Under the pieces are notes generated by a model, which had not been told where the DNA came from, did not search any database, and saw only the letters and a list, made by a program, of their open reading frames with translations. DNA of 53,510 nucleotides, taken from the NCBI GenBank assembly GCA_020536535.1, contig JAHLWZ010000265.1, positions 1-53,510 of the forward strand, in the 5' to 3' direction. Position numbers and translations under genes: made by a program. Numbering within the stretch: the first letter of the stretch is position 1; each line of letters starts with the position of its first letter. This DNA comes from Pelomyxa schiedti (Eukaryota; Protista; Evosea). Of the stretch, positions 153-47,583 are shown one piece after another.

Positions 153-977
153 GTCGGCCCTTCGCTCTTTTTTAAGTTTCTCTTAAAAAAAAAGATTGTT
201 TAGCTATCCCAACGTGGTATTTTTCTACTCACATGTCATTTTCGTTGCAACTGGGAGGGGTAAGTACAAGCCAGGAGAGGCTACGAAGGAGCGGAGCTGT
301 AAGGGGAAGGCTGGGTGAGGAGAGCTGGGAAGAGGGGTGTATGGAGCAGGACTGAAACAAACAGCAAGGTGACTGGGAGGCACGAGCTGGGAGGAGCTTG
401 TTGTACTAGTGGCATAGAGACTTGTTGTTGGGGAACTTTTTATTAAATTCCAAGTAGCAAGCTGCCCAGCCCTTTCTGTGCGCATTCTGCAATAATATTA
501 ATGAGGAAGAGGTACCTGTTTTATCATGTCTACAAAGTTCTGAGCTGGCTGTTCTGGAACTTGTAGGGGTTTGCAATACACTATTGCCATCCCCGCTGCT
601 ATTCAGTGCCTGGAAATGCTTCTGTAATTCCCGGGAGCATTCCTGCTGGTCAGGGAAAAGGTGGTATTTGGGTGGTTCAGATAGTAATGGAACCGCATAT
701 ATATGTTGATGTATCAACAAGGTATCCGTATTCAATTTATTGCTCTTCCATCAATTATTACTGGCACCTTTAGCTCAAGTAAAGTGTTCTTCCATGTGCT
801 CGTAGCTTGTAGACAACACTGATTTCAAAGACTTGGACAGCATTTCTTTCTTCATGACCTTGGCATTCCAGGTCTCATTTTTATGCTTTACCCGAAACAA
901 AAAAGGTAAACAGGAACTGTCCATCTCCTGCACTTGTGACTTTGAAAGACTTAAAATCAGCCATCAGCAGTACCTTG

Positions 978-2790
978 TAATAGAACCTTCTGTATCTCCA
1001 TGGGCAGCGCCAGTCGTGCTTGTGAATAAGCCATATGGAACCTATCGATTCTGTGTAGATTACAGAAAACTGAATGATGTAACCAAGAAGATGGCGTATC
1101 CAATGCCAAGAATTGATGACATGCTAGACGCGCTAGGTGGCAATAATTGGTTCACAGGGCTCGATTTGAAAGCTGGCTATTGGCAAGTCGAACTGTCCAA
1201 AAGAGCTAATCGCTTTTCGAACAAGATCGGGATTATACCAATTTGCTGTAATGAGTTTCGGTTTAGTCAATGCACCTGCCACATTTCAGAAATTACTGGA
1301 TCTAATTCTAGCGGGATTGACTCCTGAACACTGTTTGGTATATATCGATGATGTAATCATATTCTCGCGAGGAACCCTAGTTGAACACCTATCTTGGGTG
1401 AGGAAGGTATTTGATTGCTTGAGAAAAGCAGGATTACAAGTAAACCTGGGAAAATGTCAATTTACAATATCAGAATTGCGATATTTAGGACATTTGATCT
1501 CGAGTAATGGTGTCAAACCAGATCAGCCAAAATTCAAGCAATTCAAAATCTACAGCCGCCTGTAAATCAGAAAGGTGTGAGAAGCTTTTTAGGAATTGTA
1601 GGATATTACCGACGATTCATCAAAGGCTTTGCCAAGATATCTACTCCATTAGAAGAATTAAAGAAAAAGGATATTGAATGGCATTGGGAAGAAGCAGAGC
1701 AAAAGGTATTTGAGAAATTGCAGTGAAAGTTGATCAAGGCTCCAATTTTACAATATCTGCGATGGGATAAGCCTTTTACTATTGAAACTGATGCTTCAAT
1801 AACTGCTCTATCTGCAACATTGACGCAAAGGGATGATGAAGGACAGATCCATCCTATTGCATTTGCAAGCCGCAAACTGCGAGGCGCAGAAGTTAGATAT
1901 CATATTACACAGTTGGAAGCATTAGCTGTTGTATATGCTGTGCAACATTTTCAACCATATATTTGGGGACAACATTTTACATAATAACAGAAGCCAAATC
2001 TCTAGCTAAGCTGAATCAAGTACAAGGAAATTCACGATTGGCTAGATGGTCATTGTCCCTTCAAGAATATGACTATGAAGTCATACACAGACCTGGACAT
2101 CTTAATACTTCAGATGGCTTTACGAGAGCTGAAACCAAATAACCTGTTTCTGTTCGTGAAGAACAAAGACTTGATGTGCAAGTGGAACAGGAACAAGAAG
2201 AAAAACTGCAAGAACAAGTCTGCGTTGTGGAAATATCAAATCAGGAAATTGCTGCTGAGCAAAAGAAGGATCCAGAACTGAAGATTATTTCTGAAGTAGT
2301 CAAAGGCAATTATTCTGTGTTGAAAGACATGCCTGAAGATGAATCATGGTTCAGAAAGATCTTTTTGTCCTTGGTCACGATACTTTATGGAAAGTACCTA
2401 AACCGGCTAAGTTAGAAAAACAAACTCCAAGATGGCGATTATGATACCTAGAGGAAACATCAAGCTCCGATTGATGCAAAATCACCATGATGACTTAAAA
2501 GGTGGTGGTCATAGAAGTGGGGCCAAGATGCACATTGCTATGTACGAAAAATATTGGTGGCCGACTATGTTTCAAGACCTCAAAGAATGGGTCAAAAGCT
2601 GTCCTGAATGTCAGAGATTTCGAAAACACAAGCCAAGTTATCAACCAAAAAGTATATTAGCTACTGAACCAAATGAGTATGTAGCTATGGACTTATGGGA
2701 CCATTTCAAGAAACCAAGTCCGGAAAGACACTTGGATGTGTTATGATTGACTTGTATACTAAAGTAGTAAATCTGAAAACTTTGCGTAAA
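978..2790 (+). mobile_element. Degenerate Ty3/gypsy LTR-retrotransposon pol (RT - RNase H - integrase N-terminus), pseudogenised
   Basis: RT motifs SPWAAPVVLV, RFCVDYRKLN, LDLKAGYWQV, FGLVNAPATFQ, YIDD. RNase H TDAS, PIAFASRKL, LEALAVV. Integrase HHCC (HDD...GH...WWPTM...CPECQ) and VAMDL. The RT-RH-INT order is gypsy type. Several frameshifts and stops (TGA 1724-1726, TAA about 1982); truncated at about 2790. Confidence 0.95.
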
Positions 2791-14807: not shown

Positions 14808-17800
14808 CTAGGGTGCTTTCTCAGTTGTGGTCAATGGGGCTACCCTTGCTGATTTGCTGAAGATTGGCTTGGAACTTGGAAGTGAGGGAGAAGCCTTGGG
14901 TGCAGTGGAATCGCGGGAATCAGTACTTTTAGGGAGAACACTGCTGTGGTTGTTGCTGCGGTGTAATGATGAGGCCAATTGTGAAGATGATGGCTCTATT
15001 TGCTGTTGCCAGGAGGATATGTTGAACTTGGCGTTTGAGGTAAGCTCAGAGACTTCTGGTATGACTGTGTTCAGTGCTTCCAGGAGTGGCATCACCACAA
15101 ATTGGATGAAAGTGTACTGCATTTTGGCTTGGTTGGTGTTGTGTCTATCCATGAATGGAGATATATCCATTCCGAGCGATTTCTCTTTGTCGCCTTGCCC
15201 AAAAAGTTCTGTACCAGGTAATCAGGATAGTTTTTATTAAGGAAGGGTAGTTTGGGTACCTTCTACAACTTTCTGTGCCCAGGTTACAGCCACTTTCCAT
15301 GGCCGGGTCACATTGGAAATGTCGGCTACCTTTAAAACCATTCGGGAAAGAGATAGCCTATGCTGTGCGTTACCATAATCCAAGTGGGACACCTTTAGAA
15401 TGGAGTTGAATTCTCCAATAATCTCTAGGTGCTTTGCCATATCTACAGATGCCGTAAGAAGAAAAAGTTTGTTTTACGGCATCTTCTGTGACATACCAGT
15501 AGAAAGTATCAGAGTGATTACGATTTTCCTAAAAAGGCGAAATTGCTCAATGGACAGGTTTTTGAGGAAGTTGAGATTCTCCTGTTTCAAAATCTGGAAC
15601 AGTCTCGCTGCATGCATACTTTCTAAAACTGATTGGTCGTTGTACTGGATAGCAAGGGGGTCCATTGCCGAAACTAAGAAGTTGTTGTTCACACCTATCA
15701 ATATTACATGAGGAAAGAGTATCCACAATGATGTGAAAACCCACCAGGGTGGCAAAGATCATGACACATAGCTGATATAAGTAATGCAAGTTTTTCTACT
15801 GGCGGAATTGTGAGCAAGCATTGTGTGCAAAGGAGCCAGTGCACAGCTTGCATTACATCTGCTGCATGAAGACTGAAAGGTGTTTATGCTTTTTTTTTTT
15901 TGGAAACACATCATTACCTTGTATGATAAATATTTGTGTCAATATAGCACTGCTCGACTGTCAGGCCGAACCTGCGTTATTAGTTTAATTCACTCCTCAT
16001 CAAGGGGCGTCTCACTCCATAAATATTCTTTCGTTGATTCCAAACTCTTCAATAAGACCATGATGACGAAGAAGTAAGCAAGCCATAGTGCTTAATGCGT
16101 GTCCTTCAGCATTTTGTGTATACTGGTAAAATTCAGAAAAGTTATGGCACTGAGCAAACCTCAAAAATATCAAAGTTCCAAGTGTTGAGCTTATATCCAC
16201 TTGCCATTGTGTCAATATTAGCTGCTCCTATTTGTACAGGTGCTTTTGTTGCCGGGCTCTTACCAAAAGAACCCTTTCCTCACATTAAGATAATAACTGT
16301 GATGATGTCAACTTACTTCAAGTTTAGGGACCAACTGGTCCAGCAAAAACGCTTTTGCTTCACACTCAACTGATCCCAGCTGCTGTTCGTCGAATTGATA
16401 ACTAAAACCTATGAGGATTTCATAGCAAGCAGTGGAAGAGCGAATACATTTTCCTCTCAGCGATTAGATGTTTGATAAGTTCCAAGTTCCTATGCATGTA
16501 AAAAATATGAAAAATGCCCAGCAGTTGTACCTCAGTTCTATTGCTTTCAGATGTGTATTACGTTGTAACTCTTCCAGCATTTGTATTGCGGACTCTGCTT
16601 GAGAGGAAAAGGCAATATTGCCTTGCATTTGGATCATCACGGAGAGCTGTGCACAGTAGTTTAGCTTGGCGTGAAACGGAAATAGAAACTCTACTTGTCT
16701 CTGAAGTGCATCATGGGACCGAATCAAATTTCTATGCTGAACAAGTAGAAGTAGGATAGCGAGCGCTAAAATTCCAAGGAGTGCCAGAGCACTGCAGACC
16801 ACGGCGGGAATTATCACTTTGGTGTTCGCTCCCGCGTTGTGGCTTGGTGGGATCCAGGCTAGCCAGACCTAAAAGTATCATTAATAACTGAATTGAAGGA
16901 AAATGAACCATACATCTGAATGGTTTTTAAGCCACCTACATGCCGCCTCATCATTGGAAAAGCCTCTTTCTGCAACGTCATCTTGATTAACACTAATTAT
17001 GTACAAATAGAGATTTAGAGGAAGGAATTTACTTACACATTATCTCCATCTGGTCATTGTTGCTTAGAGTAAACTGTTTTAAAAAGGCGAATTCTTGTGG
17101 GAATCTGTTGGAGAATTGTGGCCACAATGCCTTATACAAAACTTCCTCAGGATAATCACAGAAAATTTCTCCAGTTGCAGCGTGTTGGTAGCAGGAATCA
17201 GTATAATAAGGCAGAGTCACTCGACTTAAGGCGTATTTCTTGAGATAATAATGCGGATTCCACAGATAAAATAATATACACTGGTGTGACTCAAATGCTT
17301 CGTCAATCCTGCTCAACAAAGCAGATTCCTCAAGAGGAACAAGAGTGAGATCCCATCCATTACTTCTGCAAATTTCTTCATCATACGTAGCCCAAGGAAA
17401 TGACAACAAAGTATGGTTGATGGCATCAAAGAATTCATTTCTTTCACTTGGACTCATGCCAATGAAATTGTCTTGTTTGGGAATGAGGAAAAGAAGCTAA
17501 TTATGCAAAGTAAGGTAACCTGCTCTTGGGTAAATGTCGAGACAGAAGGAAGGTATGTACCAGCCGTTTCTTCCAACCACACCAAGTGGCCCGCCATTTA
17601 TTACTAGCCCACCATCAATGTAGGTTACTTTATCTTGCTCCTCTCCAGTTGTCCAAATCTCCAGAGAAACGTGAGCAGTCCCGTTTTTGAGAAATTCCCA
17701 TGGCCCTTGATTCTCAACAAAAATGTTCTGAACTGAAGTCAAACGGGACAAAAAAAAAAAAAAAAAAAAAAAAAAAACAAAGCAACATACAGAAACAGGA

Positions 17801-33200: not shown

Positions 33201-34617
33201 AGCCATAGTACCTTCCAGGGATAAAGAAAATTCCCCAACACTGTCAGAGTATCCAGTAACAAAGATGAAATATGTCGTTTGTGCTTCCCCTACCCACTGC
33301 AGTGCAGATTGCAACGAACAGTAATCGTCGTTGTCAAGGCAATTGTAGACATTCCCGTTATTACAGCAACTAGTAAACACATAAATCATTGTATCCAGCT
33401 CAGCTGTGGAGCACAAAGAAGCATTCAACCCCACAGTTGAGGCAGGTGTGTAGGAAAATAGAACTCCTAAAGGAAAATTAGGTAACGCATTCAAACAAGG
33501 GTTAACCTTGTTTAGGTGTTGAAAAACATGAAACTAAGCTAGAGGGTGCAGAAGTTGTATCGCCTTGGTATGAAAAAGGCAACGAGTCAATAACCACCGC
33601 TGATTGACAATCCACTACAGTCTCTGTGTACAAGTGCATAAGCCACTCAAATGGAACTGAAAAACGAGAAAAAAACAGCAGAGGGACAACCTGTAGTGTT
33701 GCACTCTACATAAGACGAGGATTCCGACGGTGCACACATCTCTGGGAAAGCAAGACCATCCACAGAGGTTGTTGGAAATGTGCCCATCAAACTGCTGGTT
33801 CCAGTGGATATATCCACCATTCTAAGCTCCGAATTGAGCGAATCCGCATTTGCACCAGCGAACCACACCACGTCATTGCACGCGTCATAAGACATCGACA
33901 CTGGGGTACCCAGGCTGAATCCAATTGTCCCAGTCCCACCGGTGTCGCTGCCGTCGATTGGCCACCCAATTGCCGAAGTGGGGTCGATCCGCCACACGAC
34001 GGCGGTGTCCTGGTCGACGGCGAACAGCGCGCCGTCGGACTCGTCGGCGGCGAGGGCGACGAGGTGCGCGGGGCCCTCGACGACGCCGACGGGGCTCGCG
34101 CGGCCGCCGCCGGCCGCGTCGATGGTGTAGAGGTAGCTCAGCGAGTCCAGCTGGTCCCAGAACAGGGCGTAGAGCGCGGCGCGGCGCACCGAGTGGGCGA
34201 GGGCCGTGCCGTGCAGCAGCAGCGAGACGCCCGTGGGGCCCACGAGCGCGTGGGCGCAGGTCGCCGTGTCCAGCGTGTAGAGCGAGTTGTCGGAGCCCAG
34301 GGCCACAAGCGTGGGGCCCCCGGGCACGAACTCGGCGGCGACGAGGCTCAGGCTGGTGCTGTAGGTGCAGACCGGGGTCCACTCCCACAGGAACGGGGTG
34401 GCGAAAGAGGCCAGGCCGTAGTTGTCGGCATCGAGGACGTACGCAGGGGAACAGTTGGCAGTAGCTGAGTACCCAAATACAAAGGGGTTTTAGGGTCTGT
34501 TGCCAACAACAGCAACCAACGAGGAGGGGGGAGCGAATGATGGAGAGGGGGAACTTTACTGTGAAGAAGTGCAAAAATCGAAAGAAAAGACAAAATTGAG
34601 ACGTGGAGGCACGGCAT
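30285..34617 (-). CDS. Type I membrane surface protein: signal peptide, beta-propeller-like domain, four Cys/Asp-rich PPC-like beta-sandwich repeats, second propeller-like domain, TM and short tail
   Basis: Signal MPCLHVSILSFLSIFALLH. Four repeats C..A..I..LPF...G......CFS...G.L..Y.P....A.TC....DT.IYVF.GC.....C....DD.C...S...W....TY.I.V.G....G.F.L. Two homologous propeller-like regions start YVLD..Y....F..P.L..WT..C. TM AVGIAVGVTVGAVAFGCLSAGALFLF followed by RWINRRK. Confidence 0.8.
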
Positions 34618-37955: not shown

Positions 37956-39373
37956 ATGAGCGGTAACACGCGTGTCGTGGATCTGCGTAGCGACACGATC
38001 ACCAGGCCGACGGCGGCAATGAGGCAAGCCATTGCAACTGCAGAGGTTCGTTCTTGTGTTTTGGCTTGTTGGTTTGTTGGTTTGGTGCTGTTGGTTTCCC
38101 CACTGGGTTTTTTTTTTTTCCCTTTTTTCTCCTATTTAGTTCAACGATTACAGGTTGGGGATGATGTTTATGGCGAGGATCCTACGGTTGCCAAGTTGGA
38201 GCGAATGGTGGCGGAAACATTGGGAAAGGAGGCAGCTTTGTTTGTTCCAACAGGCGTTATGGCAAACCAGGTGCGTATTCATTCATAATTTGCTTACCCT
38301 TCACAATAAAACCGGCTTTTTTTCCTCTTTTTCTTTTTTTTTTTTTTTCTTTTTTTGTTGCAGTCAAACTGAGTTGGGATACACTTAAAAAGATTTCCAT
38401 TCATTGTCATACGAGACCTGGGCAAGAAGTTTTTTGCTCTCATTTCTCTCATGTTTACTATTACGAGTCTGGAGCCCCAGCTTGTGAGTGAAAACAAGAA
38501 GTTTTCCATTCTCTATGTGGTTACAATCTTATTGTGTGCAGTACTATCTGGTGTGACAATGGTTCCAATTCACACACGGAATGGAATTTTCACTGCTGCG
38601 GACCTTAATACTGTTTCCAGGCCCGACAACATTCATTTCCCTCCCACATCTCTTGTGTGCGTCGAAAACACTGTTGGAGGTGGCGGGGGTATTGTGTGGC
38701 CTCTGGAATCCCTTGCTGAAGTATCCACGTGGTGCAAGGCAAGAGGCATCGCACTACATATGGATGGAGCCAGGCTGTGGAACGCCAGTGTAGCTTCTGG
38801 AATTCCAGAGCGTGAATATGCTTCTCTTTGTGATTCTGTTTCTGTCTGCTTCTCCAAGGTAAAAGACTTTTTATTGACGTTGTATTTACACCTTTCCAGG
38901 GACTTGGAGCGCCAGTTGGCTCTGCTGTCGTGGGCACCAAGGAATTTATTGCACGGGCACGTGCGTTTAGGAAAGTACTAGGAGGTGGTATGAGACAAGT
39001 CGGAATAATAGCTGCTGGTGCACTTTACGCACTTGAGAATAATCGTCCCCGCCTGGCTGATGACCATGCCAATGCCAAGAGGTATTTCCGCAATACAAGT
39101 TTTTTCCACTTGACCATCTCAAGGTTTGCAGTAGGAATTTCCAAAATCCCTGGGATTGCAATTGATGTTGAAGCCGTACAAACCAACATATTGATGTTTT
39201 CTCTATCAAGTGCAACACGCGTGACCTTGCCAGAACTGGTTGACAGCCTGAAAAAACAGCATATTCTTGTTAGTGCTGTTGATTCCACCCGCATCAGAGT
39301 AGTCACATCCATGGAAGTCACAGAAAGAGATATGGAAACCGCAATAGCAGCCATTGCCGCTGCTCTAGCTTAA
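37956..39373 (+). CDS. ltaE: Low-specificity L-threonine aldolase (GLY1/LtaE family, PLP-dependent)
   Basis: [66 protein letters not shown] (PLP Lys), [10 protein letters not shown]. Confidence 0.96.
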
Positions 39374-39438: not shown

Positions 39439-41700
39439 TTAAAAGTGAGAGCTTTGTTGTGCCCTTGAATACCTTTGCTTGTACCACAGCAATAAGGAGT
39501 GCACTCGTGACTGTATTTCCACAGGCAAGTGCGAGAATGCATCAGGCTTGTCAATAGGTACCAGAAACAGGTCCTGGATGTCACGAACCGACATGGAGCT
39601 GTTGTCCGGGTGTTGTGTTGGTTGTGGTTCTGAGTTATGGGATGTGGTGGTTCTCATGGTGGGCCATGGTTCGGGTGTTACTGGTGGTTTGGGGATTCGG
39701 AACAAGGGAATTTTGGCCAGCCGGGAAATGTATACATTGTTTGTAGGTAGGTTGCGAATTTCAGGGGGGATGCAGTTCAGGTACATGGCGGAGTAAAGCT
39801 TGTAGTGAGACCGCATTTGCGAGGTCGTGCTGAGAAGTAGACTGATAACTCTCTTGTCTAACTGAAATGGTTAATCTGCTTACTGAAGACAACTGAAGGA
39901 GTGAGGGAAGCACACGAAAGGAAAAAAGAGACCACTGAAGAATGACCGGTAGGGTTCTGAAAAGAACTGCCGTTTACGCATCCCTCCATAGACATCAGAA
40001 AGAAAGCTACGAGTAAAAATCAGCATGTGGCCAAGAAAATCCCAGTTTTCCCGGTGAATTTCTTTGACAAAGTCAGAGAATTCGGATATTGCAGAGATAC
40101 AGAAACAAGGCTTCACTTTGTTGGAAGAGGCTATATCTGGCATCCTGATGATTCCTTGGACCATTTGACACACACAAGTGGGATTTGAAAGCTGATTCAA
40201 AATTGGTGATATCCGAAAGCAGTGCATTCCAACAAACTCGGTCCCATACCCTCCGTGCATGAGTAAAGATGAAGAAATTTTGGAGGCAGCCAAGGGCAGT
40301 AAGTGGTCACCAATTGAGTGATCCGAAATTTCAAGGGCTTCAGCAACTTTAGGTGCAATGGTTGCATCTGAAGGATTCCCGTTGTGGGTTGCGAAAGCCA
40401 CGCTTTGACGCTGGTGTGTATGGAGACACGTTGCTAGCAGGCGAGTATCGGCACCCCCGGTTAAAGAGGCCCGCTTTAAGTCACCATTTGACCCACTGTA
40501 CCCATCCTGGACAGCCTGTTTGATTCGTGTGTGCAGTTCAATGGAAAAGTTACAAAGCTCATCACAACTTGAGGCGGTAGTCAAAGAATTAGGTGGAATG
40601 ACTGCTGTGTCGGTATGCCTGACTAAATTGGGAATCATTCCCGCAGGGGATGCATTCATGTGCAAAAAGGAGCCCACGGGAATTCTGCTTACGGATTCAA
40701 GAAAAGTATTATCAGATAAGGTAACACCAAAGCTGAGGTACTCCAGAATAGAATGAACACACAACTCTGTCTCAATACTACCAGCAATACACTCCCATAA
40801 TGATGTTACAATGAATACATCAACGCCATTAATATGTCTCGAAGTAAAGAAGAGGGGGTAAAGTCCCATGGAGTCCGTGTGAGCTTCCACCGTCAAATCC
40901 TCTCCGAGGTCAGACCTTTTCTTCTCAACAGATATATAAGCATAAGCTCCACAAACAGAATTGAAGCGAGCAGAGTCGCCCCGCATGTGCAACGAGAGAA
41001 TCTCCTCTGGAGGTTCCAAAGCCTCACCGTTGCACCGTGAACTTTCCGTTGGATTTCCAGTGAGATTGTAAGCAAACCCCCCACATGCCACAGCCACGTG
41101 TGAACTCGAGTGCGCGTCGGTGCATTCAGGGCGGCCGGTGTATTTCCCGCACAGCCGGCATCCCACAGCTACACCAGACCTCTTTCTGGTTATACTAGTT
41201 GATTCACACTCTGCAGCCCCATCGTAAACAGGTGCCCCCGATGGCACTGATTCGGCGGCCGTTGTAGTGTTCGCAGTTGCTTCTGTGACGCCCACGGACG
41301 GCCAACTTGGGTGCGGGGTGCCGCCGGGGGCGCGGTGGCGCCCGGTCTGTTCCGAGTTGGGTGGCGGTTGTGGTGGCCGCGGCACTAGTTGCCTGCTGCC
41401 GTCGGGCACAGGCGATGCTACCAACATGGCGCGGCAGTGCCACCCCGAAGCCGAGGACACGGACACCCTGTGTACGTCGTCTGTGCCGGACGACTCACCC
41501 CACGCACTCTCGTAGTACTCTTCGTCTTCGTCGTCGGGCCCGTACTCATCATCGGGTCGGCGGTTCTCCCCTTCATTGTGGGAACTGCCGACACCACGAC
41601 ACACCCGGAGGAAAGCCATGGCGATTTTGTGTTCCGTCTCTAGCGCAGCCCCCCGATCCTGGGAAGCGCACACAACACCCAACACCTGATTCGCCATCAT
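39439..41700 (-). CDS. Asparagine-synthetase-family (bacterial-like) amide ligase lacking the N-terminal Cys1; two exons
   Basis: DSMGLYPLFF, EYLSFG..L..NTF..VSRIPVG, PP-loop-like SLTGGADTR, D..IA.KVAEAL, LMHGGYGTE; one intron joins FPF-LDKRVI (PFLD motif); about 200-aa low-complexity N-terminus. Confidence 0.72.
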
Positions 41701-41719
41701 CCTTTTCCAAGAACAACTG

Positions 41720-41817
41720 AAATTTGATGGCACTCGCGAGGGTTGTTATTAAAGATACTTGATGGTGCCTGTTAAGAAACCAACCCAGACAAACAAGTAC
41801 TTGGGTCAATACACAAG
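41720..41817 (+). repeat. Dispersed non-coding repeat, copy 2, inside the divergent promoter 41701-42006
   Basis: Alignable with 2897-2993. Confidence 0.85.
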
Positions 41818-42006: not shown

Positions 42007-45000
42007 ATGTTAGACACATTCCGCGAGGTGAAGAAGGTACTACTGGAGATTGACAGCCAGATACCGGCCCTGCTCGGACCCTCCACCAGTAAATGGCACA
42101 CGCCACTGAGCATCCCGCCCGTGGGTGTAGCCCTCATCGGGGAAGTCAAGGCCGGCAAGAGCATGGTGGGCAACGTCCTCATGCGAGAGGAGCTCCTACC
42201 CTCCGACGTCCTCGCCTGCACGAGCCGCATGACCGTCGTTATGGCACCCCCCAGGCCCCATGAGGCCCCGCCGCCCCCTCCCGCTACCACGACCCAGACC
42301 CATAATATAAGCAACGCGAGTGCTGCGGCGGCGGATGCCAGCTCCGGGGCACACGGCGACGCTGGTGGTGAGGAGGAGGCGAGGCCACGCAGTGTTTTGC
42401 TGGTGATGAAGGATGGGACTCGGCAGGGACCAATAGAGTTCGAGGGGGAGGTCCCTCGCCACTGCGTTGCTGTAAGGGTCAGCCCGGACCCTGTTGGCCA
42501 CACAGAAGTGTTTCTGGAGCGATGCAACTTTTTAGGTGATGTGATTCTCCAGGACTTCCCGGGCGTGAATGACAACACTGAAATAGAATCGGCGGTGTTT
42601 GAGAATCTCTCTGCTGTGTCAGGGGTGATATTCGTGTTGAACGCTTCTCAGGGGTGCTTCACACAGTCTGCTCGTCAGGTACTTCAGGCACTCCGTTCCA
42701 AGTGGGCGGGTCCCCCAAGGCCGATCCTATTTGTAGTGAATAAGATGGACACAATTGCGGCAAGCTTACCTGCTGTGAAGAGAAGGAATAAAGCAGTGGT
42801 AAAGGCGAAAGAGGAGGAATTGCTGAATTCTATCTTTCTGTCAATCCAGAAGGAATACCCCTCGCTTAATGATTCATCCTGGAATACTTCTACGCATTTT
42901 ACCTCACTTTCTGCCCAGCGGTGCATGGAATCTATTGTGGACCCAGAGAATCAAACACCAGAGGAAATAGTTGAGCTGGAGGCAAAAGTTGGATTCCTCT
43001 TGCAAAATACAATGAAATCCCTCATCTTACAAGCTAAGATGGAACTGGTCGGGTATCTTGACAGTTGGCTGAATGCTTGTTACAACCTTAAGGGGTTGGA
43101 AGTCTCTACTGCTGCCGCAAGAAACCTTGTTACCAGCATATCTACACCGGCTTTTTTAGTCTCCATCCAAAGACTTACAACACAGCGAGTGCACAGAGCT
43201 TTTCTTCAGGTCATAGACGCACTGCCTAAAATAAAAGCAATATCACTACAACATGACCTTCCAAGCTTCCCCCCCAATAATGTGATGTTGCACGACGCAA
43301 TTGTGGAGCATGTTAGTGACTTTACCTTTTCTCTGTTGAGGGAGAAGCTACATGAGGGAGTGGAACGCGAGTATATTTCACTGGCGGAAGACTTCACCAA
43401 CCTGTTGGTGGAGTCAAATCCTGTTTTGCAAACTTCTTCCCTCCAAGATCGGTCTATAGCTTTGTTCTCTTCTATTTTAATACCGTTTCTTCTCAAGTGT
43501 AATCCAGCTAGATCATACTTCAGTTCACTTTCTTTCTGGTATAGAACTTTAATGAGTCTGAAATTTGCTCTTATTTCCCCGGGTCTACTAGCCAAGGAGA
43601 TCCAAGAGAGAACCATTATTCGTGTCTTATACCAATTTCAGAAATCAGTCCCCTCCCTTGAGAAGTCTCTTTCTGAAGAATTGTCAACCACGGTTACTGA
43701 GGTAATCACCTCAGATTTGAAAAATCAACTTGACAAACTGGAAATTCAGCGATACGAAGCCCTTGCACAAGGAGGTACTACTTCAACTGATATGCTAAAA
43801 ACAGTTTCTTGGTGGGCCATCGAAGCAAGGTTGTCAGGCAACAAAATGGTAGCACCTCTGGACATGACTGGCGCGATTCTTATGCATAAAGATTGGCAGG
43901 GTTGTATTTACCAAGGGTGCAAACGGAGTGGGAAAGATTGTTGTGCCAAGTTACTCCATCTTAATCTCCCACGCGAAGTGCTGCAAAGTATATTCCTGCA
44001 ACTGTTCGCTTGCAAGTTTAATCTGAAACCGGGATTTGATTGCGCATATGTTTCAAACACAGATGGTACCTCTTCAATTGCCATAATCACTGATGACTGT
44101 ATGTCATGCACATCATCTCACCTGGAGGAGAGGATGATAGACATGCACGAAGAAGCGCTTATTACTCTCCCACCTGTAGAGATGCTGTTTGCCACTGCAT
44201 CCCAAGTTTCGATTGATGCTGCAGTTGCAGCGGTCCAAGCAACACCACAGGTTTTCCCCTTCTTTCTTCCTCAATTCATTGATTAAATAGTTGCCTAAGA
44301 CTTTTTCTCTGGATATTGTGAAACAAGTTACCTTTTCCAAGGAAAAGGCAACCAATGACAACCTTTGCGCTCCACATGCACGCCTCATAAATACGGGAAT
44401 GGCACTCTCATTGGACGAAGCTGCTAGCATTGTTCTTTACACCATGGATAAGCCAGTGTGCATGTACCTTTGGTTGAACAAGCAACTGCGGTCCCTGACC
44501 CGTACTGAAAAGACACTTGGCCCTTGGTTGCCATACCTGAGCATCCTCTCCACAGCATTGCATAAACTGAAGGTTACTACTAGTATCTACCAATCTGTTT
44601 TGCATTTAACAACCACCCAAAAGCCATTTGCTGGAGCCGAAGTATACCGTGGAATGAGCAGACTACCTGAGAAATACACAGAGAAATTCAATCCTGGAAG
44701 AGTTATTACGTGGTATGGACTGGCCAGCACCAGTGTCAACCGCTTTGACGCAGAGAGGTTCGCAACGTCAAACAACACTAGGGGGATGATAGTCACTATC
44801 TCACACCCAATTGGTTACGAAATCACTGACTTCAGTGCATTCCCCAGTGAACAAGAAGTGCTGATGCTGCCTGGTAAAATCTACCTTTCTAACCCCTTCG
44901 TCGTAGCAAAACTCACTGTTGGCAGGGAGCAAATTCAAAGTGACTAGTTTTGAGGACGACCCCAGCAAGCCTCACGCCACAGCCACAATTGATCAAATTC

Positions 45001-45008
45001 CTTATTGA
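42007..45008 (+). CDS. Dynamin-like GTPase + helical stalk + possible kinase N-lobe remnant + R-S-E ADP-ribosyltransferase fusion (about 952 aa)
   Basis: G1 GEVKAGKS, G2 LPSDVLACTS, G3 DFPG, G4 NKMD. ART motifs SIVLYT, LNKQLR, W.PYL..L.TALHKL, VYRG, W.GLASTS, SAFPSEQEVLMLPG-SKFKV. Exons 42007-44250, 44291-44572, 44624-44873 and 44926-45008 join in frame. Confidence 0.85.
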
Positions 45009-45061: not shown

Positions 45062-47583
45062 TCAAGCAAACCACACGAGATAACACAAGAAAGCAGCTAC
45101 GATTGCAGCACATGACATAAACAGGAGCCTGCACCTGATAGTCTCTTCCCTCTTGACCTTTTTAGCCTCTTTCCTCATTTGGTCGAGAAGATCGTTCTTC
45201 TGGTCAAAAGTGTCAATGCTGAGTGCCGCCATCAATTTGGCCATGAATTCGTCAGTGCGGGAATAAATACGGAATGTGCAGAACCGGTCACATGGAGTGT
45301 GTTGTATATTTACCAGAGCCAGCTGTGTTGTTTTTTGTTTGTTCCGTTAAGTGTGCGAGGAATATCTGGTGTTTTCACAAACCTTTCCATTTGGATTTTT
45401 CAAGCACTTGTCACACAAGGATGCCGCTGGTTGAACATTCATACTCGTGCCCAGAATTACCGACAGGTCACTGCGCCGAGCGTGCTCGATTGCTGGTAAA
45501 AACTGGTCTTCAGGCATGTTTTCCGTGAAGTGGACAATGGTGTCACGAAGGTCTCCGCCGCAATCGCACTTTCTCCCTGTGAATTCACGTTAAAGGCAAT
45601 TAATTTCAGATAGACACTAACCCGTCAAGTGGGTCCACCTGTCAGTACGTGAGTGTAGTGTATTGAAAGGTCTCAGGTAGTCACGATGGCATTTAACACA
45701 ATATTCTCTGTAGCAATTTCCGTGGAGCTCTGAGATTTGTTCCCGTTGGACACCAGAGCGGCGATGTAATCCATCAAGATTGGTACTTATGAGGAATTTT
45801 ACGAGGCCTTTTCTTGTTGTAGGTGTTGGCATTAAAGTCAATATGACAGTGTTTGAAAGTATATATACCTCAACAGCTCAGCAATGGCGTAATGTGTGTA
45901 CGTGGGAAATGCCGATTCAAGTTCTGGGGTTTCTCGGAATAGTTCACCCCGTGCCCGTGCGGTCCAGCAGCCATCAGGACCTGAGTTGGTAGGGATCAGA
46001 CTCTCAGACTCTCAACATGGAATTGCAAAAGGATACCCCTGTAATCAGGAATAGATGCTGCAGTAGAAACGCCAGCCCCAGTAAAAAAGACACAATGTCG
46101 TGCTTCTCGCATTGCTTGAGCGACTTGCTGTGCTTTCAATGTGATTGACTCTGAACTTTCAGTGTACTCAGCAATCTCCTGCTCATAGAGCAGCCCCATT
46201 GAGTCATAGGGTATAGCGGACACTATGGTAGGCTTAGACCCTGAGAAATACCATGGAATAAGGGAAGTATTGTACCCAGGCTGTTGGCTTTTTCCTGCTC
46301 TTCCTGTTCATGCAGTAATGTATCCAGTGTACGATCAGCAGCACCGAGTAAATTGCAATTTTCTGGTTGAACATAAGGTCTTGTTGTCTGTGAGATATGT
46401 TAGTTTCACATCGAATTAGGAAGTATTTACTAGGCTTTTGAGGTCCTCTGCAAAGGTTGTAATTGATGTAGCATCAAAATCTTGAACTGCATATCGACGA
46501 AGAGGCTCAGTTGGAATCTGCATTTGTTGAATGGAAAATGGAGAAAAAGATACATTCACCTTCACAACGGTATTTGGGTTAGTGCCGGGCTTCACTTGTA
46601 CAATCTCTGCACTATTACCACAGCAGTGAGTGTCCCATATAATCTGATTTCTTTTCTTAGCAAAAAAACAAATCCTACGATGTGAAAGAATACCTTGGTG
46701 TTGTCTACAAGTGTAGGGGAGTCGTCAAACTGGAAAACGGTATTCTTGACATTGTGACAACGGATGGTTCTAAGAAGTACCATGTCAAAAAAGACATAGC
46801 AGTCTGCAATGAGAGAAGCTTAGGCGGAAATTTGCGTTAATAAACTTTTCATACTGTTAAAGTTGGCAAATTCACAACTATCTGTTCCGATCACAACAGA
46901 GTCAAGAACCTAGAGCATTTTAGAAAACAATGAGGGGAACAACAATTTCACCTGCACAGTTGCATTTTCGGCATTAACAACACTTATGTGGGCAAGTTTC
47001 TGGTTGGTAGCAATAACAACACATGCATCACTGATGTCATGAAGAGCTATAATGTGGTTTGACCTCAGGTTCCTAACAAACTTCTCTCCACTCTTGAATG
47101 GCCCCTATATAGATTTCCACAATTAGGGTTTTGTCCCTTTTCGACAATTTAAGTCTTGTAAACACACTGGGCATAACAGCACATCAAATCCCAAATCAAA
47201 TCATCACCCTCGAAACCACAACCCCAAACCCATAATAGTTGGTTTTCGTCTCCACAACACACCAGCCTCACGAGCCGCTTCGGAATTCGCGGGGGCGGAA
47301 TCACGCCGTCCGAGTAAGAGGCAGGCCTCGGCTCCGCCGTAGCGGCCGTCACGGGCTCCTCTCCCACAATTGCCTCGGGCACCACCGCCGCAGCACTCGA
47401 CGTAGTATCCGGCGCTGCAGCCGCTGCCGACTCCTCCCCGCTGGTGCTAGTGGTGCTACTCGTAGCCGTCGTAGTGGCCGTCGTAGGTGCTGTGGGCGTG
47501 GCGTCGGTTGGTGCGATGGGCGTCGTCGTCGGTGTGACCGTCGTAGCTTCTGGTGCAGGTGCGTCGCCGCTCGTGGCGTCCAT
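45062..47583 (-). CDS. Class IV (SIRT6/7-like) sirtuin with an N-terminal C-CAP/cofactor-C-like beta-helix and a C-terminal tail anchor
   Basis: [40 protein letters not shown], ELHGN, CxxC...CxC Zn site, LRDTIVHF.E, LGTSM.V.PAA.L, VNIQHTPCD. C-terminal LLFMSCAAIVAAFLCYLVWFA*. N-terminal repeats HISVVNAENATVQV / TIRCHNVKNTVFQF. Confidence 0.88.

Follow-up and report, generated by a model that had tools for sequence, protein, structure and literature searches.

Does a single gene of Pelomyxa schiedti join a dynamin-like GTPase to an ADP-ribosyltransferase (ART), and what might such a protein do? The question is raised by positions 42007 to 45008, forward strand, of contig JAHLWZ010000265.1, of which the whole stretch analysed here (53,510 nucleotides) is called the window. 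A preliminary description of this DNA had read two open frames at that place as one candidate defence effector. The public model of the gene, Pelo_3428 (912 aa), was the single match of a word-index search, and it already links the GTPase and ART parts through a 40-nt intron.

Gene structure and the joining intron

The DNA of the window is eukaryotic in character, with short GT-AG introns. ORF1 (42007-44286, 759 aa) matches Pfam Dynamin_N over residues 41-246 (E 3.7e-10), and ORF2 (44291-44947) matches Pfam ART (E 2.2e-9); a further Pfam scan gave the ART an E of 4.3e-12. Single-cell RNA contigs, from three runs of one sample, show that the ART part is transcribed and spliced, and removal of the 51-nt and 52-nt introns (Table 1) yields a single frame ending with a TGA at 45006-45008. 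Another contig spans 43300-43531. The RNA contigs leave the junction 44250/44291 and positions 42007-43299 uncovered, and absence of cover is not read here as evidence.

Table 1. Features of the Pelo_3428 locus (positions in the window)
Feature	Position	Strand	Evidence or remark
Exon 1: GTPase, stalk, kinase N-lobe remnant, ART N-terminal helices	42007..44250	+	open frame; predicted start codon
BDLP/mitofusin-type GTPase domain	42127..43011	+	Dynamin_N, profile, structure alignment, motifs
G1	42139-42162	+	motif position
G2 Thr	42217-42225	+	motif position
Pro/Ala-rich insertion in GTPase domain	42250..42384	+	absent from relatives (alignment); pLDDT <50
G3	42553-42564	+	motif position
G4	42739-42750	+	motif position
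G5-like block	42898-42915	+	inside GTPase domain
Helical stalk	43012..43764	+	long modelled helices, low pLDDT
Candidate membrane paddle at stalk tip	43456..43575	+	hydropathy; membrane binding inferred
Protein-kinase N-lobe remnant, no C-lobe	43867..44091	+	predicted structure, fold searches
ART N-terminal helical subdomain, upstream of joining intron	44110..44235	+	profile, ART2.2 superposition
Joining intron, inferred	44251..44299 (49 nt) or 44251..44290 (40 nt), both in frame	+	homology, intron features
Exon 2: ART helices	44300..44572 (from 44291 with the 40-nt form)	+	RNA contig over 44454-44572
Intron, 51 nt	44573..44623	+	RNA contigs, runs X1 and X3
Exon 3: ART core with R (YRG), S, ExE	44624..44873	+	RNA contig
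YRG	44645-44653	+	ART motif position
S-T-S	44720-44734	+	ART motif position
EQE	44849-44857	+	ART motif position
Intron, 52 nt	44874..44925	+	RNA contig, run X1
Exon 4: final two ART strands and stop	44926..45008	+	RNA contig to 45009; translation

Homology and intron features indicate that an intron with its donor at 44251 very probably fuses the GTPase frame to the ART frame. The strongest argument is that the first helices of the ART itself precede both this donor and the ORF1 stop, which makes the join very likely. A profile of the ART N-terminal subdomain scored 18.5 bits at ORF1 residues 702-743, compared with 1.0 for the best of 200 shuffles and -2.3 for ORF2, in a test that is not fully independent because the 76 short ART proteins of the profile were chosen with Pelo_3428 as query. 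In the structure alignment ART2.2 superposes on model residues 674-912, spanning the junction, and phmmer matches in relatives run across it. The donor scores 6.5, within the leave-one-out range of -0.3 to 8.8 obtained for 29 RNA-shown introns in two stretches (41-102 nt, mean GC 0.38), and 44252-44291 is the joint G-poorest 40-mer within 42900-44900. The in-frame GT..AG join proposed in the preliminary description very likely stands, with two amendments: the acceptor may be 44299 in place of 44290, and the ART holds two further introns. The acceptor scores are 2.9 at 44299 and 1.6 at 44290, the 40-nt form is shorter than all 29 RNA-shown introns measured, and the 49-nt form is favoured by 3.4 bits with the family profile and 1.0 bits with the ART profile, a margin too small to decide.

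Two separate genes in P. schiedti, or a main transcript that ends at 44286, would agree with the absence of an RNA bridge across the junction, with the beginning of the ART-part contigs at about 44454 and with the in-frame stop and ATTAAA at 44282-44287, which could permit an ART-less transcript. Such an arrangement is nevertheless very improbable, given that the first ART helices are encoded upstream of that stop, that the relatives are single ORFs on transcripts and that the contig start at 44454 bears adaptor letters resembling a template switch. A true transcript start near 44454 was itself dismissed, since the contig end there is probably an artefact of template switching (in a comparison by eye, 9 of 13 letters agree with the adaptor). 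With the same layout present in five other full-length proteins, and the ART starting before the donor, the GTPase and the ART very likely form a single protein, the product of a single spliced gene of about 950 aa. We consider a 120-nt in-frame intron of the public model, 42799-42918, to be spurious, since it deletes a GTPase block that is conserved in relatives; the family-profile score rises from 352 bits with these letters removed to 386-389 bits with them retained (about 35 bits).

The GTPase domain and its stalk

The G1-G4 motifs, which are intact at the places where they had been named, together with a dynamin-type G domain identify the GTPase as a BDLP/mitofusin-like member of the dynamin superfamily, and both profile and structure alignment agree. 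Against the PDB the best match of the family profile was BDLP (2j68, E 4e-31), followed by Fzo1 and the mitofusins (1e-20) and by IniA, with much weaker matches to Drp1 (1e-9) and dynamin-1 (6e-7). Structure alignment of the GTPase with VIA gave MFN2 (Z 20.0, rmsd 5.2 over 304), Fzo1 (Z 18.8) and IniA (Z 17.8). Membership of the core dynamin/Mx/MidX classes (dynamin, Drp1, Mx, Mgm1) was rejected, as the BDLP/mitofusin matches are far stronger.

The family profile reaches position 565 against IniA, and covers residues 24-562 of IniA and 129-570 of DLP1. The helical stalk claimed earlier is present in the model, which is of low confidence in this part (pTM 0.46), and so is the paddle-like stretch, which turned out to be only moderately hydrophobic in this protein: its best 19-residue hydropathy is 1.44, compared with 2.47 in P0004, 2.15 in P0005 and 1.86 in P0008. 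The paddle is clearly hydrophobic in three of the six relatives examined, and weaker in P0093 and P0096.

A kinase N-lobe between stalk and ART

The linker that follows the stalk is predicted to form three strands, then a helix and a further two strands, with the same topology in two separate models. Taken with fold searches dominated by kinases, this bears out the decayed kinase N-lobe that had been suspected. With the N-lobe alone, VIA returned kinase domains in 44 of 50 rows, including all of the top 39 (Z 5.3-6.8, where the level of the tool is 8); the best match has Z 6.8 and rmsd 3.4 over 87 residues, and the scores are modest as only about 80 residues align. All 47 rows listed by Foldseek are kinases (best E 3.6e-3, none reaching 0.001), and the sequence support has an E of 0.48. 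The alignment indicates that all full-length family members carry the N-lobe segment, and the lysine of the third strand is retained in Pelo_3428 and in three of seven other rows.

The C-lobe with its catalytic loop and DFG is absent, the ART N-subdomain coming directly after the fifth strand, and no kinase match was found with Pfam. Since the C-lobe is missing, the remnant cannot be an active kinase. As modelled, with only an N-lobe and no complete dual-specificity kinase domain, the Pelo_3428 product is neither a kinase nor a member of DSTYK. The N-lobe is likely to be a spacer or a brake, a relic of an ancestral GTPase-kinase in which the C-lobe gave way to the ART.

The ADP-ribosyltransferase domain

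The Pelo_3428 product has both the ARTC fold and the R, S and E-x-E residues. The complete signature of R (YRG), STS and ExE (EQE) that had been read from the sequence is present, and YRG, the central Ser and ExE are kept in all six full-length members of the family; R811, S837, E878 and E880 are kept in 84-85 of 90 aligned rows. The best structural match of the ART, modelled with pLDDT mostly >90, is mammalian ART2.2 (Z 18.3, rmsd 3.1 over 207 residues), and the fold also matches HopU1 and XopAI (Z 16-18 for the three). According to passages of PMC3102197, ExE marks arginine specificity of ARTC enzymes, and this motif suggests that the ART very probably transfers ADP-ribose to arginine as a mono-ART.

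The label of a toxin-type ART holds for the fold, but not for the nearest relatives, which are eukaryotic ARTs, nor for the best structure, ART2.2. The named sequence relatives of the ART that were looked up are all eukaryotic, from rotifers (Adineta), Thecamoeba and Entosiphon. By Pfam, related ARTs occur in fusions with LRR, TPR, ankyrin, WW, MORN, NACHT, helicase or caspase domains; from these many fusions it follows that ART shuffling is common, with the GTPase-ART protein as one long-lived product. Tandem multi-ART proteins were also observed (P0006, P0015, P0022, P0028, P0052 and P0137), some of them with WW domains; apart from P0137, which was outside the tree, the five group together in the FastTree ART tree. 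For three of these proteins the source was looked up, in each case an assembly contig.

Family members and phylogeny

A phmmer search over 1.84 billion representatives gave 1848 matches, of which the best 150 were listed; 41 were scanned with Pfam, and 161 proteins with local profiles. Among the matches listed, five other full-length proteins show the order GTPase, stalk, linker and ART, so that the Dynamin_N and ART architecture recurs as a conserved family. They are transcript ORFs from Pelomyxa sp. JSP (P0004/P0156) and Pyxidicula operculata (P0008), a further transcript ORF (P0093), a protein from an assembly contig (P0009) and Pelo_3837 of P. schiedti (P0005), whose ART falls below the Pfam threshold yet reaches 112 bits with the ART profile. 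P0096, P0126, P0043, P0033 and P0053 are partial sequences with this layout. The full-length members are about 20-40% identical (22-25% overall to Pelo_3428), and G1, G3 and G4 are kept in 8 of 8 rows. The two P. schiedti paralogues, Pelo_3428 and Pelo_3837, share 27-33% identity in aligned blocks; P. schiedti has at least two copies among the matches listed (best 150 of 1848), where no expansion is visible. The N-terminal extensions of P0093 (residues 1-366), P0005 (1-265) and P0096 (1-247) are unrelated, hinting at variable targeting modules.

In the GTPase tree, which comprised 38 of 51 GTPase rows, the eight family rows fell on one side of a branch with support of 94/88, against 30 other dynamin-like proteins. 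The ART domains of the family formed one group at 0.98 in the FastTree analysis (70 of 147 ART domains) and were unresolved in IQ-TREE (40 domains); the GTPase and ART trees were built without mitofusin or DSTYK sequences. The sequence data thus suggest that the GTPase-ART layout defines a conserved protist family with one origin, the monophyly of the ART domains being that of the FastTree analysis only. No relatives were found in viral contigs. Scans of metagenomes and prokaryotes yielded at least 17 and at least 31 loci, all with GTPase-only matches; among these 48 listed loci the fused form was absent, and the N-lobe, stalk and ART profiles had no match. Another word-index search returned five relatives, GTPase-only, and the Atlas leads were of dynamin type, all below 0.9.

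Neighbouring genes

The locus is followed on the minus strand by a convergent Sir2-family sirtuin gene (45065-47100), in which RNA contigs show 10 introns; its product has a long extension at the N-terminus and, at the C-terminus, a hydrophobic tail resembling a membrane anchor. The sirtuin and ART stops are about 55 nt apart, so that the 3' ends may overlap, and it may be by chance that two enzymes that use NAD+ are neighbours. At 45996, inside a sirtuin intron, the contig of the DNA run is without 8 letters found in the window. The divergent neighbour (39600-41745, minus strand) is transcribed and spliced and encodes more than 600 aa with no Pfam or PDB sequence match; judged by eye from a motif, it resembles an asparagine-synthetase-like protein. 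Elsewhere in the window we found a threonine-aldolase-like Beta_elim_lyase gene (38373-39373, plus strand), a weak match to bacterial DUF4394 under the cut-off (33650-34489, minus strand, E 1.7e-6), an OpuAC glycine-betaine-binding domain near a cyclic-nucleotide phosphodiesterase domain, possibly one sensor-PDE gene (17032-17496 and 14811-15221, minus strand), and a reverse transcriptase fragment (806-1327, plus strand, RVT_1 E 1.6e-9), probably from a retroelement at the contig end.

Comparison with known proteins

BDLP (2j68), IniA (6j72), DLP1/2 (5owv), MFN2 (6jfk) and Fzo1 (9kfd) share with the Pelo_3428 product the GTPase fold and motifs and the helical stalk, and its moderately hydrophobic stalk tip is a candidate for their paddle. 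In contrast to BDLP and the mitofusins, the Pelo_3428 product adds the C-terminal kinase N-lobe and ART, and this member has no strong transmembrane segment. The arginine-specific ARTC enzymes (ART2.2, 1gxy; HopU1; Tre1-type, 6drh; XopAI; Vis) have the same fold (Z 15-18) and R-S-ExE residues; unlike these surface or secreted enzymes, the Pelo_3428 ART lies at the C-terminus of a GTPase, and its nearest sequences are eukaryotic multi-domain ARTs. This position predicts that it is likely cytosolic and neither surface-bound nor secreted. The DSTYK/Dusty kinases carry a dynamin-like N-terminal region ahead of the kinase. With such a region, the order of GTPase, helical region and kinase N-lobe would be alike, whereas Pelo_3428 has an ART and no C-lobe; the titles and abstracts in the literature searched on DSTYK do not mention such a region. 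Dynamin-like GTPases also act in defence, in the Eleos/LeoABC systems and in the animal GBP/IRG proteins, which coat pathogens, and we know of no ART fusion in either. The anti-phage LeoA/LeoBC profiles of PADLOC match 4 of 12 rows of the family alignment, but not the Pelo_3428 product itself, which had no PADLOC match. A GTPase and a modifying enzyme are combined in one chain in the Roco proteins (LRRK1/2, Dictyostelium Pats1), according to parts of PMC9573974; there a Roc-COR GTPase accompanies an intact kinase, and in Pelo_3428 a dynamin-type GTPase accompanies an ART.

No description of a dynamin-ART fusion was found in the literature searched, which was mostly outside subscription journals, and supplements could list such proteins. 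The portions available of PMC8887013, 10.1101/2023.06.28.546890, PMC3417536, PMC9573974 and PMC3102197 describe none. Two recent surveys set this part of the superfamily aside: mitofusins and BDLPs in PMC10280142, and Mfn/Fzo together with highly divergent dynamin-like GTPases in PMC11789081. The 2010 review PMC3102197 stated that arginine-specific ARTs seemed to be lacking in unicellular eukaryotes. Both Pfam domains are visible in public annotation and in that sense known already, while the family, its N-lobe remnant and its spread appear to be undescribed.

Proposed function and significance

In BDLP and the mitofusins, the protein opens once GTP is bound and then forms dimers and polymers, which sit on the membrane via the stalk tip. 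On the model of BDLP and IniA, the Pelo_3428 product probably oligomerises on membranes in a GTP-driven manner. We favour, on balance, the reading that one spliced protein of a protist family forms a coat that assembles on membranes with GTP and brings an arginine-specific mono-ART there. The GTPase would assemble on the membrane via the stalk tip, and the ART, hung from the catalytically dead kinase N-lobe, would be concentrated there by the assembly and possibly released from the N-lobe brake; the ExE ART would transfer ADP-ribose to arginine of proteins on the coated membrane. The most likely role, which we propose tentatively, is predicted to be the tagging or disabling of proteins on membranes associated with prey, symbionts or viruses. 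Defence or symbiont control is taken as the lead because related ARTs occur in conflict-type fusions, because of the LeoA/LeoBC matches and the divergence of the paralogues, and because prokaryotes live in the cytosol and vacuoles of the host, according to the abstract of PMC10579272.

Low-copy retention fits a housekeeping role as well. With the same fusion and chemistry, the GTPase could remodel an endomembrane or a mitochondrion-related organelle while the ART acts as a regulator of itself or of partners in trafficking, a reading that we regard as rather unlikely. The retention of the protein in lineages as far apart as Pelomyxa and Pyxidicula, its one or two copies without expansion among the matches listed and the mitofusins as best structural matches are in line with it; the P. 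schiedti paralogues, only 27-33% identical in aligned blocks, the few matches overall, which suggest patchy spread, and the conflict-type architectures of related ARTs speak against it. It is quite improbable that the ART is mainly an NAD+ hydrolase or nucleic-acid marker, and that the assembled protein works as a switch to suicide or dormancy, as in the dynamin defence systems of bacteria: the LeoA/LeoBC matches in 4 of 12 rows would suit such a switch, and PMC3102197 describes certain ARTC enzymes that hydrolyse NAD+ or modify DNA, but in that review such enzymes are QxE, and the six full-length members here are all ExE.

The membrane coat with a mono-ART has a bolder version, unlikely as a whole, in which a DSTYK-like GTPase-kinase exchanged its C-lobe for an arginine-specific ART and became an ancient protist immune coat on phagosome, symbiont or virus-factory membranes that ADP-ribosylates only when assembled. 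If true, it would be an amoebal counterpart of the GBP/IRG coats with a built-in writer. The architecture is real, conserved and probably undescribed, and its function is predicted. The family represents an apparently undescribed eukaryotic branch of the dynamin superfamily with a modifying enzyme built in. It probably preserves a domain swap halfway, with the kinase severed between its lobes, and through it the control that amoebae may exert over prey, symbionts or giant viruses could be tested directly.
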